This document shows, one piece after another, positions 1,569 through 16,528 of a stretch of DNA of 16,969 nt. The DNA is from Myxococcales bacterium. Lineage in GTDB: Bacteria; Myxococcota; Myxococcia; Myxococcales; Anaeromyxobacteraceae. The first letter of the stretch is position 1; each line of letters begins with the position of its first letter. The DNA lies in assembly GCA_038320275.1 (NCBI GenBank), contig JBBQEB010000078.1, forward strand, positions 1 through 16,969, read 5' to 3'. The position numbers and the translations under genes are program-made. The notes under the pieces were generated by a model. That model had not been told where the DNA came from and made no database searches. It saw only the letters and a list, made by a program, of their open reading frames with translations.

Positions 1569-5210
<3,642 letters not shown>

Positions 5211-6671: not shown

Positions 6672-6690
6672 ACGAGCCACGGAGGCTCGT
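6672..6690 (+). terminator. Small hairpin after the MFS stop, possible weak terminator
   Basis: ACGAGCC-ACGGA-GGCTCGT lies 9 nt after the stop but lacks a strong U-tract. Confidence 0.3.
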
Positions 6691-6719
6691 TGCGAGAAGT
6701 AGCTTCCGGAAGCTACATT
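6690..6719 (+). promoter_or_regulatory. Sigma70-type promoter with an overlapping 18-bp palindromic operator for the TA operon
   Basis: TTGCGA (6690-6695), an 18-bp spacer, then TACATT (6714-6719). The perfect palindrome GTAGCTTCCGGAAGCTAC (6699-6716) covers the spacer and the start of the -10 element. Confidence 0.7.
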
Positions 6720-6725
6720 CCTTCC

Positions 6726-7019
6726 ATGCGAACCGTCGGGCTGAAGGTGCTGAAGAACCGATTGAGCGAGTACGTGCGGCTCGCCGCGCGGGGTGAGACG
6801 GTCCTCATCTCGGACCGCGATCGCGTCGTCGCGGAGCTGGTTCCGCCGGGCGCTGGGCGCTCCTCCGAGCTCCCGGACGCGCTGCTCGCGGAAATGGTTC
6901 GGCGTGGGCAGCTCACGCCCGCGACGCTGCCTCCAGGTGCGAGACCACGCTCGCTGCCCGGCGTCGCACCCCTCGCGGAGCTCCTCGCCGAGCTCGAAGA
7001 CGACCGGTCGAGCCGGTGA
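6726..7019 (+). CDS. Phd/YefM-family type II antitoxin (97 aa)
   Basis: MRTVGLKVLKNRLSEYVRLAARGETVLISDRDRVVAELVP is a typical Phd N-terminus. Its stop overlaps the toxin start (GTGA). Confidence 0.9.
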   Translation: MRTVGLKVLKNRLSEYVRLAARGETVLISDRDRVVAELVPPGAGRSSELPDALLAEMVRRGQLTPATLPPGARPRSLPGVAPLAELLAELEDDRSSR

Positions 7020-7399
7020 TCTACCTGGACACGTCCGTCGCCCTGGCGGAGCTCCTCTCCGAGGACCGCAAGGCCCCCGAGGCCCTCTGGTTTGAGCCGC
7101 TCGTCGCGAGCAGGCTGCTCGAATACGAGCTGTGGAGCCGGGTTCACGCGCGCGGACTTGGCGCCTCCCATGGCGACACGGTGCGCGAGCTTCTGGCGCA
7201 GGTCTCGCTCGTCGAGCTCCTTCCTGCGGTGCTCGAGAGGGCGCTCCAGCCGTTCACGTCACCGTTGCGGACACTCGACGCGATGCACCTCGCGACCGCC
7301 CACCACCTCGCCATGGCCCGCCAGAGGATCGCGATGGCCACCTTCGACGAGCGCATGCGGCGCGGCGCGCGTGCGCTCGGGCTCGACCTCGCCTTCTGA
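7016..7399 (+). CDS. vapC: VapC-type PIN-domain toxin (127 aa)
   Basis: Contains the PIN motifs IYLDTS, E.E, LRTLDAMHLATA and ATFD, and is translationally coupled to the antitoxin. Confidence 0.9.
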   Translation: MIYLDTSVALAELLSEDRKAPEALWFEPLVASRLLEYELWSRVHARGLGASHGDTVRELLAQVSLVELLPAVLERALQPFTSPLRTLDAMHLATAHHLAMARQRIAMATFDERMRRGARALGLDLAF

Positions 7400-8551: not shown

Positions 8552-9145
8552 ATGCACTTCTTGCCTCGATCCCGCCCCGCCGTGCTTGCCGCCCTCACCC
8601 TCGCGCTCGCCGCCTCGCTGTCCGCATGCGCGCACTCCAGGGGATCCGAGGCCGCGGCTCCCCCTCCGACCGCCGCTGTTTCCGCGGCGAGCGCCGCGAC
8701 CAGCGCAAAGGTGGATCCGGGGCGCTCCGAGGCCGCGCAGAACCTCGCCGCCTTCTTCGGCAAGACGAAGGGCATGCGCACGGTCTTCGCGTCGGACCTG
8801 CGGGCCGACCTGGCGAAGGACAAGTACTTCGTGGTCGACGTCCGCCCCGCCGCCGACTACGCGAAGGGCCACGTCCCGGGCGCGATCAGCCTGCCGCTCG
8901 AGACGCTGTTCACCGAGGCGTCCCTCGCGAAGCTGCCGCCGCGGGCCGGAAAGCCCATCATGCTCGTCTGCCAGACCGGCCACACCGCGTCCATGGCGCT
9001 GGGCGGGCTCACCGCGCTCGGGTACGAGCCGTACGCGCTGCGCTTCGCCATGATCGGGTGGGAGGCGAAGACGGCGCTCAAGGTGTTCTCCAAGGACGAG
9101 CCGCCGCAAGAAGTGCGGGGGCTCGGCGGGCCCATCGAGCGCTGA
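8552..9145 (+). CDS. Rhodanese-domain (sulfurtransferase) lipoprotein, 197 aa
   Basis: AGGAG RBS before ATG 8552. The signal peptide ends in the lipobox LSAC. It has the rhodanese motif VVDVRPAADYAKGHVPGAISLP and the active-site loop VCQTGHTA. Confidence 0.88.
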   Translation: MHFLPRSRPAVLAALTLALAASLSACAHSRGSEAAAPPPTAAVSAASAATSAKVDPGRSEAAQNLAAFFGKTKGMRTVFASDLRADLAKDKYFVVDVRPAADYAKGHVPGAISLPLETLFTEASLAKLPPRAGKPIMLVCQTGHTASMALGGLTALGYEPYALRFAMIGWEAKTALKVFSKDEPPQEVRGLGGPIER

Positions 9146-9157
9146 AGAGGCCGCCCC

Positions 9158-9373
9158 ATGCCTATCTACGAATACGCTTGCGCGAAGTGTGACGGGAGCT
9201 TCGAGGAGCTCATCGTCCGCCGCTCGGACGAGGCCGACGTGTGCTGCCCGCGATGCCAGGCGAAGGACGTGCACCGGCTCATGTCCGCGCCCTCGGCCGC
9301 GCCCTCCCGCGGGAACGGCGGCGGGCGGGCGGCTCCGGCACGGGGGTGCGGGCCCGTGGGTTGAGGGATCTGA
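9158..9373 (+). CDS. FmdB-family zinc-ribbon protein, probable selenoprotein (UGA 9362-9364 read as Sec; 68 aa if it is a stop)
   Basis: MPIYEYACAKC...CCPRC...VHRLMSAP is the FmdB signature. The C-terminus reads GCGPVG-TGA-GGG-ATC-TGA, followed by a SECIS-like hairpin. Confidence 0.85.
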
Positions 9374-9375
9374 AC

Positions 9376-9393
9376 GCCGCCCGGTCGGGTGGC
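9376..9393 (+). promoter_or_regulatory. Bacterial SECIS-like element
   Basis: GCCGCCC-GGTC-GGGTGGC: a 7-bp stem (one G-U pair) starting 11 nt after the UGA, with a GGUC loop 18 nt after it. This matches the E. coli fdhF SECIS geometry. Confidence 0.75.
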
Positions 9394-9462: not shown

Positions 9463-9480
9463 GGTTCAATCGATTGAACC
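9463..9480. promoter_or_regulatory. Perfect 18-bp palindrome, putative transcription-factor operator
   Basis: GGTTCAATCGATTGAACC is AT-rich against a very GC-rich background and lies about 90 bp upstream of the ATG at 9568. Confidence 0.65.
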
Positions 9481-9567: not shown

Positions 9568-9816
9568 ATGGATCTCGCCTCCCGCTGGGCCGCCTTCTCC
9601 CGCTCCCACCTGCGCACGCTCGCCTCCGCGGGGATCGGCGCCGGGCTCGGCGCGGCGTATGCGCTCACGATCGGCTGCTCCACCGGGAGCTGCCCGCTGA
9701 CCTCGAACGCCTGGACCGCGGCGCTCTTCGCGGGCTTCACGGGCGCGATCGCGGGATGGCCGGACCGGCCGAGGCGCGTGGCCGGGGCGGAACGGGAGGC
9801 CCCGCCGGTCCCGTGA
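9568..9816 (+). CDS. Small two-TM membrane protein with a GCxxGxCP motif (DUF6132-like), 82 aa
   Basis: GGAG RBS before ATG 9568. Two hydrophobic helices flank IGCSTGSCPLTSN. The family assignment is from recollection of the motif. Confidence 0.75.
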   Translation: MDLASRWAAFSRSHLRTLASAGIGAGLGAAYALTIGCSTGSCPLTSNAWTAALFAGFTGAIAGWPDRPRRVAGAEREAPPVP

Positions 9817-10124
9817 GCATCCCGCGCCGCGCTTTCGCTAGCGGCGCACGCGAGGCGGTGCTCGCCGCCGTTTCACTCCGGCGACCTCGAATCCGCTCTC
9901 CCGCGCCGCGGCGAAGAGCGCGAGGTCGTGTGTGGCGAAGACCAGGTCGCACCGCACCGTTCGTCACCGGCGAGGACCGCTCGAGTACCCGATGACCCCG
10001 TGGCCGCGGACCTTCCGCGCTCGAGGTGTGACGTCTTGCCGCGCAAGCGCGTGTGGACAGCGCCCCTCGACCCCCCGAATATGGGGCGCTCCGGCACATG
10101 AGCTCGTGGCCGCAGAGGTGCACC

Positions 10125-10898
10125 GTGTCCGACGCAAAGCTGGGACGTAGGGAGCTCGTCACCCTCATCGGCGCCGCCGCCGCCGGCGCTGGCCTGGTCG
10201 GGAGGGCGCGGGCCTCCGCGCCCGACGCGAAGCCGGCTGCGGGCGGGAAGACGCCCTGGGTCTACCAGCCGCTCGAGCCCGACGCGGTCGCCGAGCGAGC
10301 CTTCGCGAGCTACGCGAAGGGACACTGCATGTACGGCTGCTTCGAGTCGATCGTCGGCACGCTCGCCGACCGCGCCGGCGAGCCCTACCGGTCCTTTCCC
10401 TTCGACATGTTCGTCTATGGAGCGGGCGGCGTCGCCGGGTGGGGCACGCTGTGCGGCGCGCTCAACGGCGCGGCGGCTGCCTTCCAGCTCCTCTCCGCGA
10501 AGCCCCAGCCGCTCGTCGACGCGCTCTTCACCTGGTACGAGCGCGAGCCGCTCCCGAACTATCGCCCGCGCGGCGCGAAGTTCCCCGACGTGAAGATCGC
10601 CGCGGGCTCGCCGCTCTGCCATGCGTCGGTCTCGGAGTGGTGCAAGGCGGCACACAAGAAGACCTACACGCCGGAGCGGAAGGAGCGCTGCGGGGTGCTC
10701 ACCGCGTCCGTCGCGCGAGAGGCTGTGGTGCTCCTCAACGCCCAGGCGGCCGGGAGGACCATCCCCGCCGCATTCGAGAAGCACACCGAGGAGTGCATGA
10801 GCTGCCACGAGCAGGGCGGCGCGCAGGAGAACTCGCGCGGCAAGATGGGCTGCAGTTCGTGTCACTTCAGCTTGGGCACGAAGCACACGCCGCTGTAG
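10125..10898 (+). CDS. Tat-exported C_GCAxxG_C_C-family protein with two C-terminal c-heme motifs (split-Soret cytochrome c-like), 257 aa
   Basis: AGAGG RBS before GTG 10125. Twin-arginine signal LGRRELV...ARA. Conserved Cys motifs GHCMYG, GWGTLCGALNG, SPLCHASVSEWC and RKERCG. Heme motifs CMSCH and CSSCH at the C-terminus. Confidence 0.85.
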   Translation: MSDAKLGRRELVTLIGAAAAGAGLVGRARASAPDAKPAAGGKTPWVYQPLEPDAVAERAFASYAKGHCMYGCFESIVGTLADRAGEPYRSFPFDMFVYGAGGVAGWGTLCGALNGAAAAFQLLSAKPQPLVDALFTWYEREPLPNYRPRGAKFPDVKIAAGSPLCHASVSEWCKAAHKKTYTPERKERCGVLTASVAREAVVLLNAQAAGRTIPAAFEKHTEECMSCHEQGGAQENSRGKMGCSSCHFSLGTKHTPL

Positions 10899-12010: not shown

Positions 12011-13291
12011 TCAGGTCCTCACCTGGCCTTCGCCTTCCACCACGTACTTCTGCGTGGTGAGCTCCGCGAGCCCCATGGGCCCGAAGGCGTGCAACTTCGT
12101 CGTGGAGATGCCGATCTCGGCGCCGAGCCCCAGCTCGCCGCCGTCGTTGAACCGCGTCGACGCGTTCACCATCACCGCGCTCGCGACCACCTCGCGCTCG
12201 AAACGACGCGCGTTCGCGAGGTCGTTGGTGGCGATCGCCTCGGTGTGCATCGAGCCGAAGCGCGCGATGTGCTCCAGCGCGCCGTCGAGGCCGGGCACCA
12301 CCCTCACCGCCAGGACGAGGTCGAGGAACTCCTTGCCGTAGTCCTCGGGGCTCGCGGCGACGGCCTTCACGCCCGCCCGGCGCAGGATGCCGAGCGCCGT
12401 GGGATCGCAGCGCAGCTCCACCCCAGCCTCCGCCAGCGCCCGCCCCACCTCCGGCAAGAGCTTCGCCGCGGCGGCGCGGTGCACGAGGAGGCACTCCAGG
12501 GCGTTGCACACGCCCGGGCGCTGCACCTTGCCGTTCATGGCCAGGGCCATCGCCCGCTCCGGCGGGGCAGAGGCGTCCAGGAAGAGGTGGCACACGCCCT
12601 GGTAATGCTTCACCACCGGCACCCGCGAGCGCTCGGCGACGGCCCGGATGAGCGAGGGACCGCCGCGCGGGATGGCCAGGTCGATGAGGTCGTCGAGCTG
12701 CAGGAGCGCGAAGGTGGCCTCACGGTCGGGGGTGGGGACCACCTGGGCAGCGGCCTCCGGGAGCCCGGCCGCCGCGAGCCCCTCGGCGAACGCCTCCCCG
12801 AGTGCCAGGCACGAGCGCAGGGCGTCCGAACCGGGCCGCAGGATGGCGGCGTTGCCGCTCTTCACGCAGAGGGCCGCCGCGTCGGCGGTGACGTTGGGGC
12901 GGGCCTCGTAGACCATGAGCACCACCCCCAGCGGGATGCGGACCTTCTTCACCGACAGGCCGTTGGGACGGCGCCAGCTCGCCGTCACCTCGCCCACCGG
13001 GTCGGGGAGCGCGGCGACCTCCCGAAGCGCCCGCGCGATACCGTCCAGCCGCGCCGGGTCGAGGGCGAGCCGATCGAGGAAGGCGGCGGGCTGCCCAGCC
13101 TTCCGGGCCTGGGCGAGGTCGGCCCGGTTGGCGGCGAGGATGGCGCGCGCCCGGCGGCGAATCGCGTCGCCAGCGCCGAGGAGGGCGGCGTTCTTCACCT
13201 CGGTGGGCGCGTGGCCCAGCAGCCGGGACGCATCGCGCGCCGCGGTGGCGAGCGCGCGCATCTCCCCTTCCAGGCTGGCAGGCTGCCTCAT
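12011..13291 (-). CDS. proA: Gamma-glutamyl phosphate reductase
   Basis: Motifs [49 protein letters not shown] and GPMGLAELT. Its start overlaps the proB stop (ATGA). Confidence 0.97.
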
Positions 13292-14433
13292 GCGCTCTCC
13301 GGCCCTCCCTCGAGGAGGACCATGTCGCTGCGGTGGACGATCTCGTCCAGGTACCTATAGCCGAGCGCCCGCTCGATCTCGCTCGACTTGAGGCCCACCA
13401 GGCGCCGGATCTCGTCCGCCCCGTAGCCTGCGAGGCCCCGCGCGAAGGGCGCCTTCCCGCCGGCCACGGCGATGTCCACCGGATCCCCCACGCCGAAGGC
13501 GCCCGTCACCGAGCGCACCCCGGAGGGCAGGAGACTTCGCCCGCGCTCCACCAGTGCCTGGCGCGCGCCGGGATCCACCAGGATGACCCCGCGCCCGCGC
13601 GCGGCGGCTGCGAGCCATCCCTTTCGGCCGCGCAGCCGGTCGGAGCGCGGGGAGAAGACCGTCCCCACCGGCTCTCCCCGGAGCAGGTCGGCGAGCGCGC
13701 CCCGCCGCCGGCCGGAGAGGAGCGCCGTCGTCGCGCCCTGGGCGGCGAGCCGCTTCGCCGCGCGGAGCTTCGTCACCATCCCACCCACGCTGCGCTCCGA
13801 CCCCGCGCCGCCCGCCATCCGCTCCACCTCGGGCGTGACGCGCGCCACGTCTTCCACCAGGCGCGCTCCGGCCTCCGAGGGCGGTCGATCGTAGAGCCCC
13901 TCCACATCGGTGAACATCGCCACCAGCTCGGCCTCGACGCAGGTCGCGACCAGCGCCGCCAGCGAATCGTTGTCGCCGACCTTGATCTCCTCCACCGCCA
14001 CGGTGTCGTTCTCGTTCACCACCGGCAGCACGCCGAGCTCGAGCAGCCGGGCGAAGGTGCGCCGCGCGTTCAGGAAGCGCTTGCGGCTGGCGAGGTCCTC
14101 GGCGGTGAGGAGCACCTGGGCCACCTTCATCCCCTGCGGCGCGAGCGCGTCGCCCCAGGCGCGCACGAGGTCGGGCTGGCCCACGGCGGCGCAGGCCTGC
14201 TTGGTGGCCATGTCCCATCCCTTGCGGGAGCGGGAGAGCCCGAGCCGCTCGGCCCCCAGCGCGATGGCGCCGGAGGTGACGAGCACCACCCGCCGCGTCC
14301 GCGCCGCGTCCGCCAGCTCGGCGGCGAGCCTGCCGCAGTTCTCGCGGTCGAAGCGGCCCGAGCCGTCGGTGAGCGTGCCTGTGCCGACCTTCACGACGAG
14401 CCGCTTCACGCGGGAGAGGGAGGCGCGGGACAT
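13288..14433 (-). CDS. proB: Glutamate 5-kinase with a C-terminal PUA domain
   Basis: Motifs [35 protein letters not shown] and GGMVTK, plus the PUA region (SLLPSGV...F..GD) and EIVHRSDMV. Confidence 0.97.
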
Positions 14434-14539
14434 GGCGGAGCGGGGAGCATACAGCGTTCGAGCCTGTTCGCCCGCGTGCGTCCGCGAGCTCTTGCTCAGG
14501 ATGGGCGCATGGAGGGGCGCGGCCTCCTCGGCCCGACAC

Positions 14540-14734
14540 CTCGGGGCGGCGCAGGCCTACCTCGCGAAGGCGCGCCTGCGGACGGAGGTCCTCGACCTCT
14601 TGCTCTCGCGCGGCGGCTTCTCGGACGTCGTTCGCGAAGCGCAGGAGCTCGTCGAACGGGTCTGCAAGGGCATGCGGCCGCACGTCGGGATCGAGCCGCC
14701 GAAATAGCACGACGAGCGGGTGATCGCGCCCTGA
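14540..14734 (+). pseudogene. Truncated HEPN-domain gene fragment
   Basis: AQAYLAKARLR...FSDVVREAQELVERVCKGMRPHVGIEPPK*HD resembles the N-terminal half of HEPN proteins (AQE..E..LK...G..PP..HD). A TAG interrupts the motif just before HD, and the C-terminal half is missing. Confidence 0.6.
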
Positions 14735-14800
14735 GGCGCGCCGCCCTGGACGAAACCCCCAGGTCGCCCTCGGCTCCGAGGATGATTACAACAGGGTGAG

Positions 14801-16528
14801 ATGGAAGAAGTCTTCGGGAACACGCTCGGCCTCAAGCCCAGCCAGCTGCATGCCCTCCGCCGCACCTTCCGGCGCCGCGTCGACGCCGAGGACGTCATCT
14901 CGCCGGAGCTGGCGCGTCACCTCACCGAGGTGTCGCGCGAGACGAACCGGCAGATCGGCGTCCTGCTCGATCGCAAGGGCGACGTGCAGTCGGTGCTGGT
15001 GGGGGACGCCCGCAAGCTCGAGCTGCCCGACATCGGACGCGCCCGCGCAGGCTCGCACCGCCTGAGAGGTCTGCGGCTCGTGCACACGCACCTGCACGGC
15101 GAGCCGCTCACGCGCGACGACCACACCGACCTCGCGCTCCTGCGGCTCGACCTCGTGGCGGCCATCGAGGTGGGCGAGGACGGGCTGCCCGGCAAGGTGC
15201 ACTACGCGCACCTCCTGCCGGAGAACCCCACCGGCGCCATGTGGAAGGACGAGGTCGCGCAAACCGTCCACGACCTGCGCTACGACGCGCTCGGCGGCGC
15301 GCTGGCGCTGGAGGACGAGTTCGCCCGCGCCTCGGCGCTCCGCCGCACCGGGGAGCGGGAGCGGGCGCTGCTGGTGGGCTTCGGCGACGGCAAGAGGCGG
15401 GGCCGTGCCGCCGCGGAGGCCTCGCTGGAGGAGCTGCGCGAGCTCGCGCGCACGGCGGGGGTGGCGGTGGTGGACGCGACGCTGCAGATGCGGCGGCAGA
15501 TCGACCCGCGCTACCTCATCGGCAAGGGCAAGCTCGACGACGTCCTGCTCCGCTCCATGCAGCTCATGGCGGACCTGATCGTCTTCGACTGGGATCTCTC
15601 CCCCTCCCAGGCCCGCGGCATCGGCGAGGCGACCAGCCTCAAGATCCTCGACCGCACCCAGCTCATCCTCGACATCTTCGCCCAGCGGGCACAGTCGGCG
15701 GACGGCAAGCTGCAGGTGGAGCTGGCGCAGCTCGAGTACCTCTATCCGCGGCTGGTGGGCAGGGACAGCTCGCTGTCGCGGCTCGCCGGAGGCATCGGCG
15801 GCCGCGGCCCCGGCGAGACGAAGCTCGAGATCGACCGCCGCCGCGTGCGCGACCGCATCACCGCCCTGAAGCGGCGCATCGAGAGCCTCTCCGCCAACCG
15901 GCAGGTGCGGCGCAAGCAGCGCAACCTGCGCGGCCTGCCGGTCATCTCGATCGTCGGTTACACGAACGCCGGCAAGTCCACCCTGCTGAACGCGCTCACC
16001 GACTCCGCGGTGGTGGCCGAGAACGTGCTCTTCGCCACGCTCGACCCCACCAGCCGCCGCCTGCGCTTTCCGCGGGACCGGGAGGTCATCATCACCGACA
16101 CGGTGGGCTTCATCCGCGATCTCCCCGCCGACCTCGTCAACGCCTTCCGCGCCACGCTGGAGGAGCTCGGCGACGCCGATCTCCTGCTGCACGTGGTGGA
16201 CGCGGCCGACCCGAACCTCGAGTCGCAGACTCGCGCCGTCGAGGGCATCCTGCGCGACCTCGAGCTCGACGGAAAGCCGCGCCTCCTCGTCTTCAACAAG
16301 GCGGACAAGCTCCCCCCTGGACAGGCCGAGGCGCTGGCGCACCGGGAGGACGGCGTCGCGATCTCGGCCGAGACGCGGGCGGGGCTGGAGGGGCTGCTGC
16401 GCCGCTGCGACCAGGTGCTCTGGCAGGACGGCAAGGGGCTGGGCCGCGCGGCCCACGGTCCCGATGGCGACGAGGAGCACGAGCCGTCGAGGCTGTTCCC
16501 GGCGGCCGTGGCCCCGCTGCGACGGTGA
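14801..16528 (+). CDS. hflX: GTPase HflX, long form with an extra N-terminal domain
   Basis: Motifs DRTQLILDIFAQRA, GKLQVELAQL, GGRGPGETKLEIDRR, G1 GYTNAGKS, LFATLDPT, DTVGFI and NKAD. Confidence 0.96.
   Translation: MEEVFGNTLGLKPSQLHALRRTFRRRVDAEDVISPELARHLTEVSRETNRQIGVLLDRKGDVQSVLVGDARKLELPDIGRARAGSHRLRGLRLVHTHLHGEPLTRDDHTDLALLRLDLVAAIEVGEDGLPGKVHYAHLLPENPTGAMWKDEVAQTVHDLRYDALGGALALEDEFARASALRRTGERERALLVGFGDGKRRGRAAAEASLEELRELARTAGVAVVDATLQMRRQIDPRYLIGKGKLDDVLLRSMQLMADLIVFDWDLSPSQARGIGEATSLKILDRTQLILDIFAQRAQSADGKLQVELAQLEYLYPRLVGRDSSLSRLAGGIGGRGPGETKLEIDRRRVRDRITALKRRIESLSANRQVRRKQRNLRGLPVISIVGYTNAGKSTLLNALTDSAVVAENVLFATLDPTSRRLRFPRDREVIITDTVGFIRDLPADLVNAFRATLEELGDADLLLHVVDAADPNLESQTRAVEGILRDLELDGKPRLLVFNKADKLPPGQAEALAHREDGVAISAETRAGLEGLLRRCDQVLWQDGKGLGRAAHGPDGDEEHEPSRLFPAAVAPLRR

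Follow-up and report, generated by a model that had tools for sequence, protein, structure and literature searches.

Does the FmdB-type zinc-ribbon gene in this window (the whole stretch of 16,969 nucleotides that was analysed) end at its first in-frame TGA, or is that codon read as selenocysteine (Sec)? The first-pass annotation had argued for Sec, with a 71-residue product ending in CGPVGUGI that standard annotation would cut short. On the conservation of both the UGA and a downstream hairpin in relatives, the apparent stop is almost certainly read as Sec, and we put the probability of the complete explanation, a selenoprotein carrying a C-terminal Cys/Sec arm, at about 0.93.

When the first TGA is translated as U, the frame opened by the ATG at 9158 runs on through GGG and ATC to a second TGA and yields exactly the predicted length and C-terminus (Table 1). 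The protein matches TIGR02605 (57.7 bits, cut-off 31.3) and PF09723 (51.4 bits, cut-off 34.4), models that span residues 1–50 only and do not describe the C-terminal tail; zinc binding and a regulator role are putative annotations of the FmdB family. The ribbon residues C8, C11, C30 and C33 are invariant in 47/47 aligned orthologues, as are C64, G65, P66, G68 and the UGA position, with four residues separating C64 from U69. AlphaFold modelled the ribbon at a pLDDT of ~90 (residues 1–40) and gave low confidence to linker and tail, below 50 at residues 50–57. A Foldseek search against the PDB returned no match at E≤0.001 and weak matches to other zinc ribbons. The rhodanese gene upstream and the FmdB gene probably form one operon.

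Table 1. Coordinates of the FmdB gene, its parts and its immediate neighbours in the window.
Feature	Position	Strand	Basis
Full gene, FmdB-family zinc-ribbon protein, UGA read as Sec, 71 aa	9158..9373	+	Reading-frame translation; TIGR02605 and PF09723 matches
Zinc ribbon, residues 1–42, C8/C11 and C30/C33	9158..9283	+	Pfam match, orthologue alignment, pLDDT
Linker rich in Gly/Ser/Ala/Pro, length varies	9284..9346	+	Orthologue alignment, pLDDT
Conserved tail C64-G-P-V-G-U69-G-I	9347..9370	+	Orthologue alignment, codon variation
In-frame UGA, inferred Sec69	9362..9364	+	TGA in 67/67 pattern-matched loci and the other 3 of 70
True stop codon, TGA here	9371..9373	+	Next stop varies among 67 orthologous loci
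SECIS-like hairpin, 7 bp, GGUC loop, wholly in the 3′ UTR	9376..9393	+	Fold, pairing in 64 orthologues
Shine-Dalgarno-like AGAGG, 7 nt 5′ of the start, abutting the rhodanese stop	9146..9150	+	Sequence, inference
Rhodanese-domain protein, lipoprotein-like N-terminus, upstream neighbour	8552..9145	+	PF00581 from 8582; start and signal by eye
DUF6132 small membrane protein, downstream neighbour	9568..9816	+	PF19628

Eleven nucleotides (9365–9375) separate the first TGA from the hairpin GCCGCCC-GGTC-GGGTGGC, and its GGTC loop begins at 9383, 18 nt past the UGA; both distances are exactly those given in the first-pass annotation. With just two codons past the UGA, the SECIS falls in the 3′ UTR beyond the true stop, again as described there. 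The Escherichia coli fdhF SECIS has an 11-nt spacing, an apical GGUC loop and a bulged U in the upper stem. The element found here shares the spacing and the loop, whereas its stem is a perfect 7 bp, lacks the bulged U and lies outside the coding region; the minimum-energy fold is this same uninterrupted hairpin. The earlier term 'fdhF-like' therefore holds for spacing and loop only.

Taken alone, the hairpin is not above chance: against shuffled sequences its z-scores in three sequence windows were −0.62, 0.17 and −1.70, and a GGTC hairpin follows 29 of the 66,401 TGA triplets of the genome, a rate like that after control triplets (2.1–4.5 × 10−4). At 72% GC such hairpins are ordinary, TGA is the commonest stop (719 of 1,006 long ORFs, 71%), 17 of the 18 ordinary FmdB paralogues likewise end in TGA, and the database entries examined all stop at this codon. 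These observations would suit a first TGA that is a real stop, a second that is a tandem back-up, and a hairpin that is a terminator, an RNA-stability element or a small repeat. We consider this very improbable. The hairpin core is present once in the genome, no promoter or terminator was called between 7300 and 11200, an Rfam search gave a chance match only, and no U-tract follows the stem at any of 67 orthologous loci (the 8 nt past it never hold more than 3 T). Nor does a terminator require an invariant GGUC loop or a fixed distance from the first stop. Two other genes of the same genome served as internal controls: an FdhA-type Sec gene (L299, on C8 of this genome, G000) has a GGUC SECIS hairpin with the loop at +18, and a PrdB-like gene (L300:603-1301, G000 C59; TIGR04483, below cut-off) has a GGUC hairpin with the loop at +20.

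Judged from the aligned sequences, it is only through conservation in relatives that the hairpin stands far above chance. A search of Anaeromyxobacteraceae genomes gave matches to the gene in 78 of 92, and the orthologue set was made up of the 70 best full-length loci, which come from 69 genomes, the present one among them. All 70 keep the TGA and the GGUC hairpin, where Haft and Gwadz ask for ten or more examples that uniformly carry TGA. The pattern CGP[VI]G plus a stop fits 67 of the 70 loci, with TGA as that stop in 67/67, and the next stop is TGA in 47, TAG in 19 and TAA in 1, near genome usage. Similarity extends over the two residues that exist past the UGA: 65 of the 67 loci have exactly [GAS][ILVF] before the stop, with synonymous codon changes there and on both flanks of the UGA. 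The other two (L054 and L085) carry an indel after the UGA and read on, probably through sequencing errors. Of the three loci outside the pattern, one ends in CGPFS-U-GT, one escapes the start pattern and one has an upstream frameshift.

The GGUC loop, which supplies the apical G of a SECIS at its customary distance, begins 16–22 nt past the UGA in 66 of the 67 loci and 31 nt past it in one. Across the 64 orthologues with a tetraloop (three GGUCC rows were left out of this count), 437 of 448 cells of the 7-bp stem pair, as against 159–207 of 448 when the 3′ arm was slid. Compensatory changes occur at pair 2 (C-G 42, G-C 22), at pair 6 (C-G 31, U-A 31) and also at pair 7. By eye, the ordinary FmdB paralogues have neither the conserved extension nor the hairpin. 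The conservation of two codons past the UGA at the amino-acid level speaks against plain termination. Hardly any weight falls to a changed code that reads UGA as Trp, Gly or Cys, or to an assembly error: in this genome TGA closes most long ORFs, the codon is common to 69 independently assembled genomes, and a contig from run X1 shows zero differences, that run being possibly the assembly's own source and so not independent.

The sel genes that the first-pass annotation wished to see are largely present. The assembly (90.7% complete, 2.9% contamination) contains a Sec-type selD with an in-frame TGA, two different tRNA-Sec genes (C89:8313-8411 and C231:1160-1258), a partial native selB and a selA that may have come from elsewhere. 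The selB fragment covers model positions 1–49, lies at the end of contig C146, and shares 88% identity and synteny with the selB of a genome of the same genus; a search of the assembly for PF09107, the C-terminal domain of SelB, gave no match, which the contig end that cuts the gene explains. The selA match, on the 1.9-kb contig C312, scores above the cut-off and does not stand out in tetranucleotide make-up; its identity to same-family SelA is only ~50–60%, and it may therefore be foreign. One set of these Sec genes may be contamination. A selA match containing one internal TGA was seen in genome G430 (C157:2068-3432).

Across the family the gene follows the Sec machinery. Sec genes occur in 69/69 carrier genomes: 56 have a selB match, 10 more have selA, G044 and G014 have tRNA-Sec and a TGA-containing selD, and the last is the present genome. 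Six genomes lack selA and selB (G009, G010, G011, G016, G017 and G047), and the gene was found in none of them; G016 (100% complete) and G017 (96%) are also without selD and tRNA-Sec. Five of the six belong to one genus, so these absences represent few independent events. The gene is also absent from 17 Sec-positive genomes, in which it is dispensable or unassembled.

Cys counterparts of the UGA were found outside the host family. From other genomes of the phylum 36 loci were taken, 35 of which fit the reading pattern; three end in C-x4-C-G-I (L145 and L162) or C-x4-C-A-V (L172), and these tails match the C-x4-U-G-I and U-A-I endings residue for residue. The three genomes concerned, 97–99% complete, have no selA match. 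Two further C-x4-C-G-I tails (P0080 and P0160) occur among the top 150 representatives, 14 of which end at CGP[VIL]G and 52 in a C...[FHY][STRG]-type tail, counted at the protein level and possibly truncated. No CGPxGC tail occurs among these 150, nor a Cys version in the 70 family loci, so Cys at the aligned site belongs to homologues and to none inside the CGP[VI]G clade. Cys aligned with the UGA in genomes without selA, together with a gene that tracks the Sec machinery, counts against a plain stop. The first-pass annotation had named as contrary evidence a genome without sel genes and homologues ending here in TAA or TAG with neither a Cys counterpart nor a hairpin; neither half describes what was found.

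Most other outside homologues have CxxC-x4-CxxC(H) tails. In one FmdB protein (L167:785-1003, genome G345) the tail reads CxxC-x4-TGA-x2-C-S-H with TGA replacing the third tail Cys, which by its sequence constitutes a third putative Sec arrangement in the family; four more end in GFS-TGA-G-stop with a GGUC hairpin, and selA is present in all five genomes. A further FmdB protein (L141, genome G102) ends in GGGGL-TGA-G-V-P... with a hairpin at +11, and its genome has tRNA-Sec and a TGA-containing selD with no selA match. In a tree built from the ribbon only, the CGP[VI]G group lies on one side of a branch with support 97/88; the Cys-tailed homologues were not resolved as its sisters, nor was the number of Sec-tail origins. 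Among 401 genomes of the phylum searched with a profile, the CGP[VI]G-UGA form turned up in the host family alone.

Related forms extend well beyond the phylum. A scan of GTDB for FmdB genes followed by TGA-GGN-TRR gave at least 120 loci; among the 120 matches listed, the TGA is the first in-frame stop in 108. A metagenome scan for FmdB genes with a G-U-x-hydrophobic-stop pattern gave 120 loci, 116 of them in frame. Because both patterns preselect a TGA with a short extension, these in-frame shares are in part a product of the search; this does not apply to the hairpin and selA tests. Of the 108 listed in-frame GTDB loci, 105 read U-G-stop (TAA 37, TGA 36, TAG 32) and three have TGG in place of the stop; a hairpin is present in 107, mostly 15–21 nt from the UGA, and 101 of the listed loci have G in the first two loop positions, compared with 14% in shuffles. 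Within the first 50 of the 120 matches listed, selA was found in 42 of 45 in-frame genomes versus 2 of 5 out-of-frame genomes. In the metagenome set 112 of 116 in-frame loci have a hairpin and 20 are of the CGP[VI]G type. Nine phylum labels occur among the 45 rows sampled for the tree. Many members of this wider class end in U-G-COOH, and their Cys-Sec spacing varies between 1 and 12. For scale, the main text of BSepDB counts 16,621 species that use Sec in a set of more than 64,000 genomes.

FmdB selenoproteins have been catalogued before, in a different form. The accessible parts of Zhang and Gladyshev (2008; PMC2398784) describe them as two single Global Ocean Sampling reads, with Sec, according to the supplement, in the first CxxC at positions 8 and/or 11; a TIGR02605 UxxU entry also stands in Table 1 of PMC13188914 as far as that source is accessible. 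Those reads belong to the same zinc-ribbon family and have a UGA with a predicted SECIS, but they differ in the Sec position and in the downstream sequence. The present gene encodes its ribbon with four Cys codons, places Sec third from the C-terminus, has its SECIS in the 3′ UTR and comes with scores of genomic orthologues. The C-terminal-Sec FmdB is therefore a distinct form. The earlier guess that the family may not be new does not extend to this Sec position. A 2026 inventory of 119 families, in its accessible part, treats different Sec positions as distinct subfamilies, repeats the Global Ocean Sampling entry and lists no C-terminal-Sec FmdB; the accessible parts of a 2022 review table and of the deep-Sep reference set likewise repeat that entry with no C-terminal form. 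FmdB is not mentioned in the main texts of BSepDB and SelCysML, and the families of Haft and Tolstoy (2025), as tabulated in a review, include no FmdB entry, though supplements could differ. The accessible full-text literature on FmdB, zinc-ribbon or Anaeromyxobacter selenoproteins yielded no description of a C-terminal-Sec FmdB. The protein called 'FmdB' in PMC11227280 is another one, subunit B of formylmethanofuran dehydrogenase.

Automated resources pass over the tail in the same way. NCBIfam 20.0 offers no selenoprotein model that fits the Sec-extended protein or any of four other Sec-type homologues; one of the four gave a weak partial match to NF041197. The RefSeq entries from cultured Anaeromyxobacter (WP_041453372.1, WP_012526586.1 and WP_012097275.1) are 65–66 residues long, the length expected if translation stopped at the UGA, so standard annotation does truncate the protein as anticipated. 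Similar truncation affects SaoC (NF040734) and KCU-star (NF033934), which have Sec at or near the C-terminus and a SECIS past the stop codon (Haft and Gwadz, 10.1101/2022.07.06.499078). SaoC is thus a precedent for a 3′-UTR SECIS. Both are unrelated proteins with adjacent Cys-Sec, in contrast to a Cys and Sec four residues apart on a zinc ribbon, and the present protein does not match either model.

Several further features of the genome and window were recorded. Two paralogous membrane-type peptides of 54–55 residues (L297:1537-1701, minus strand, G000 C5; L298:1267-1428, minus strand, G000 C263) share WVLP-x-x-GVPT, an in-frame TGA and a GGUC hairpin 19 nt on; read through, they have no NCBIfam match and are candidate uncatalogued selenoproteins. 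A thioredoxin-like U-x-x-C gene (ASPT-TGA-GMC; L301:531-968, minus strand, G000 C10) also has a hairpin, and the 146-residue part scanned gave no NCBIfam match. Between the FmdB gene and the DUF6132 gene lies a perfect 18-bp palindrome (9463–9480) with four near-identical copies in the genome, at least two of them inside an apparently repeated ORF; it may be an operator or the relic of a repeat. Other genes occupy 1569–5100, 6690–7399, 10053–10898 and 12011–16528; the window encodes a split-Soret cytochrome c-like protein (NF047622, below cut-off) and, by eye, a PIN-type toxin-antitoxin pair, proB/proA, RsfS, HflX and pyruvate:ferredoxin oxidoreductase.

The SelB/SECIS recoding pathway of bacteria is established, and a course of events can be proposed on it. 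SelB carrying Sec-tRNA would bind the GGUC hairpin, which begins 11 nt beyond the UGA, and insert Sec at codon 69, after which the ribosome would add Gly-Ile and terminate at the second UGA. The predicted product joins the FmdB zinc ribbon, through a flexible linker, to the C-G-P-V-G-U-G-I tail. In this tail a mobile Cys64/Sec69 arm would cycle between selenenylsulfide and selenolthiol, be re-reduced by the thioredoxin system, and act on or switch a partner engaged by the ribbon. The 'redox-active' tail of the first-pass annotation is likewise a proposal. Mammalian thioredoxin reductase carries a C-terminal Gly-Cys-Sec-Gly arm, and the likeness, a flexible C-terminal Cys/Sec pair, is analogy only: there is no homology and no flavin domain, and Cys and Sec are not adjacent here as they are in tails of the thioredoxin-reductase or CU-COOH type.

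Gene neighbourhoods bear on this function unevenly. In the host family the gene usually lies between a pyrophosphatase or DUF2721 gene upstream and a GspE/PilB-type ATPase gene downstream; these are housekeeping genes, and a shared functional neighbourhood was looked for in the family and not found. At the present locus the rhodanese gene precedes and DUF6132 comes after, the rhodanese not being a usual neighbour in relatives. In the wider class, where the scan covered 90 of 122 selected neighbours, a thioredoxin reductase or thioredoxin-fold gene is directly adjacent at 10 of 71 long-flank loci, a count that has no background control and includes several related Syntrophales; ArsR (2), HMA, NifU, OsmC and DUF302 genes also occur.

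On these neighbourhood data we favour, tentatively and at somewhat less than even odds, the mobile redox arm served by thioredoxin; the free Cys-Sec spacing, which fits no fixed redox geometry, counts against it. That same free spacing would suit a Sec-containing tail that works as a chaperone or sensor and binds a metal-sulfur cluster or else soft metals or metalloids (Cu, Hg, As, Ni). The CxxC-x4-CxxC(H) tails of relatives without Sec resemble metal sites, the Sec of L167 replaces the third Cys of such a tail, and ArsR, an HMA-domain protein, NifU and rhodanese stand among the neighbours. The Sec form, however, retains one tail Cys only, and thioredoxin-system neighbours outnumber the metal-related ones; we regard metal binding as possible and less likely than the redox arm. 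UGA recoding competes with termination, and partial recoding could give forms of 68 and 71 residues in a ratio that tracks selenium supply, so that the protein would act as a selenium-dependent switch. The tail is not needed to complete the ribbon, and the FmdB family is annotated as a putative regulator, but relatives without Sec have lost the gene altogether and do not retain a short form, which suggests that this form is of little use and makes such a switch unlikely.

Leaving function aside, the recoding itself is very probably of the ordinary bacterial kind, and what appears from sequence comparison to be new is the Sec position and the large unannotated class. This selenoprotein subfamily, absent from the accessible part of the 119-entry 2026 inventory and without an NCBIfam 20.0 model of its own, is found in 69 of 92 Anaeromyxobacteraceae genomes, with related forms in at least nine phyla. 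Because the class is widespread, many FmdB database entries are probably two or three residues short and without their most reactive residue, which exposes a systematic weakness near C-termini in selenoprotein finders that work by homology. The class also supplies hundreds of natural SECIS elements that no coding sequence constrains and that would be useful for work on SelB recognition and selenoprotein expression, and the Sec tail gives a family of unassigned function a chemical handle. A broader view, which we hold with considerable doubt, is that FmdB proteins with a C-terminal Sec may form one of the selenoprotein families most widely spread among bacteria. Catalogues would have missed them for two reasons: the UGA is followed by no more than one or two residues, and the SECIS sits in the 3′ UTR. 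These proteins may be zinc-ribbon switches or carriers that are coupled to thioredoxin and swing a Cys/Sec arm, a parallel in bacteria to the tail of mammalian thioredoxin reductase; the present gene would represent their CGPVGU-x-I branch, conserved across the host family.
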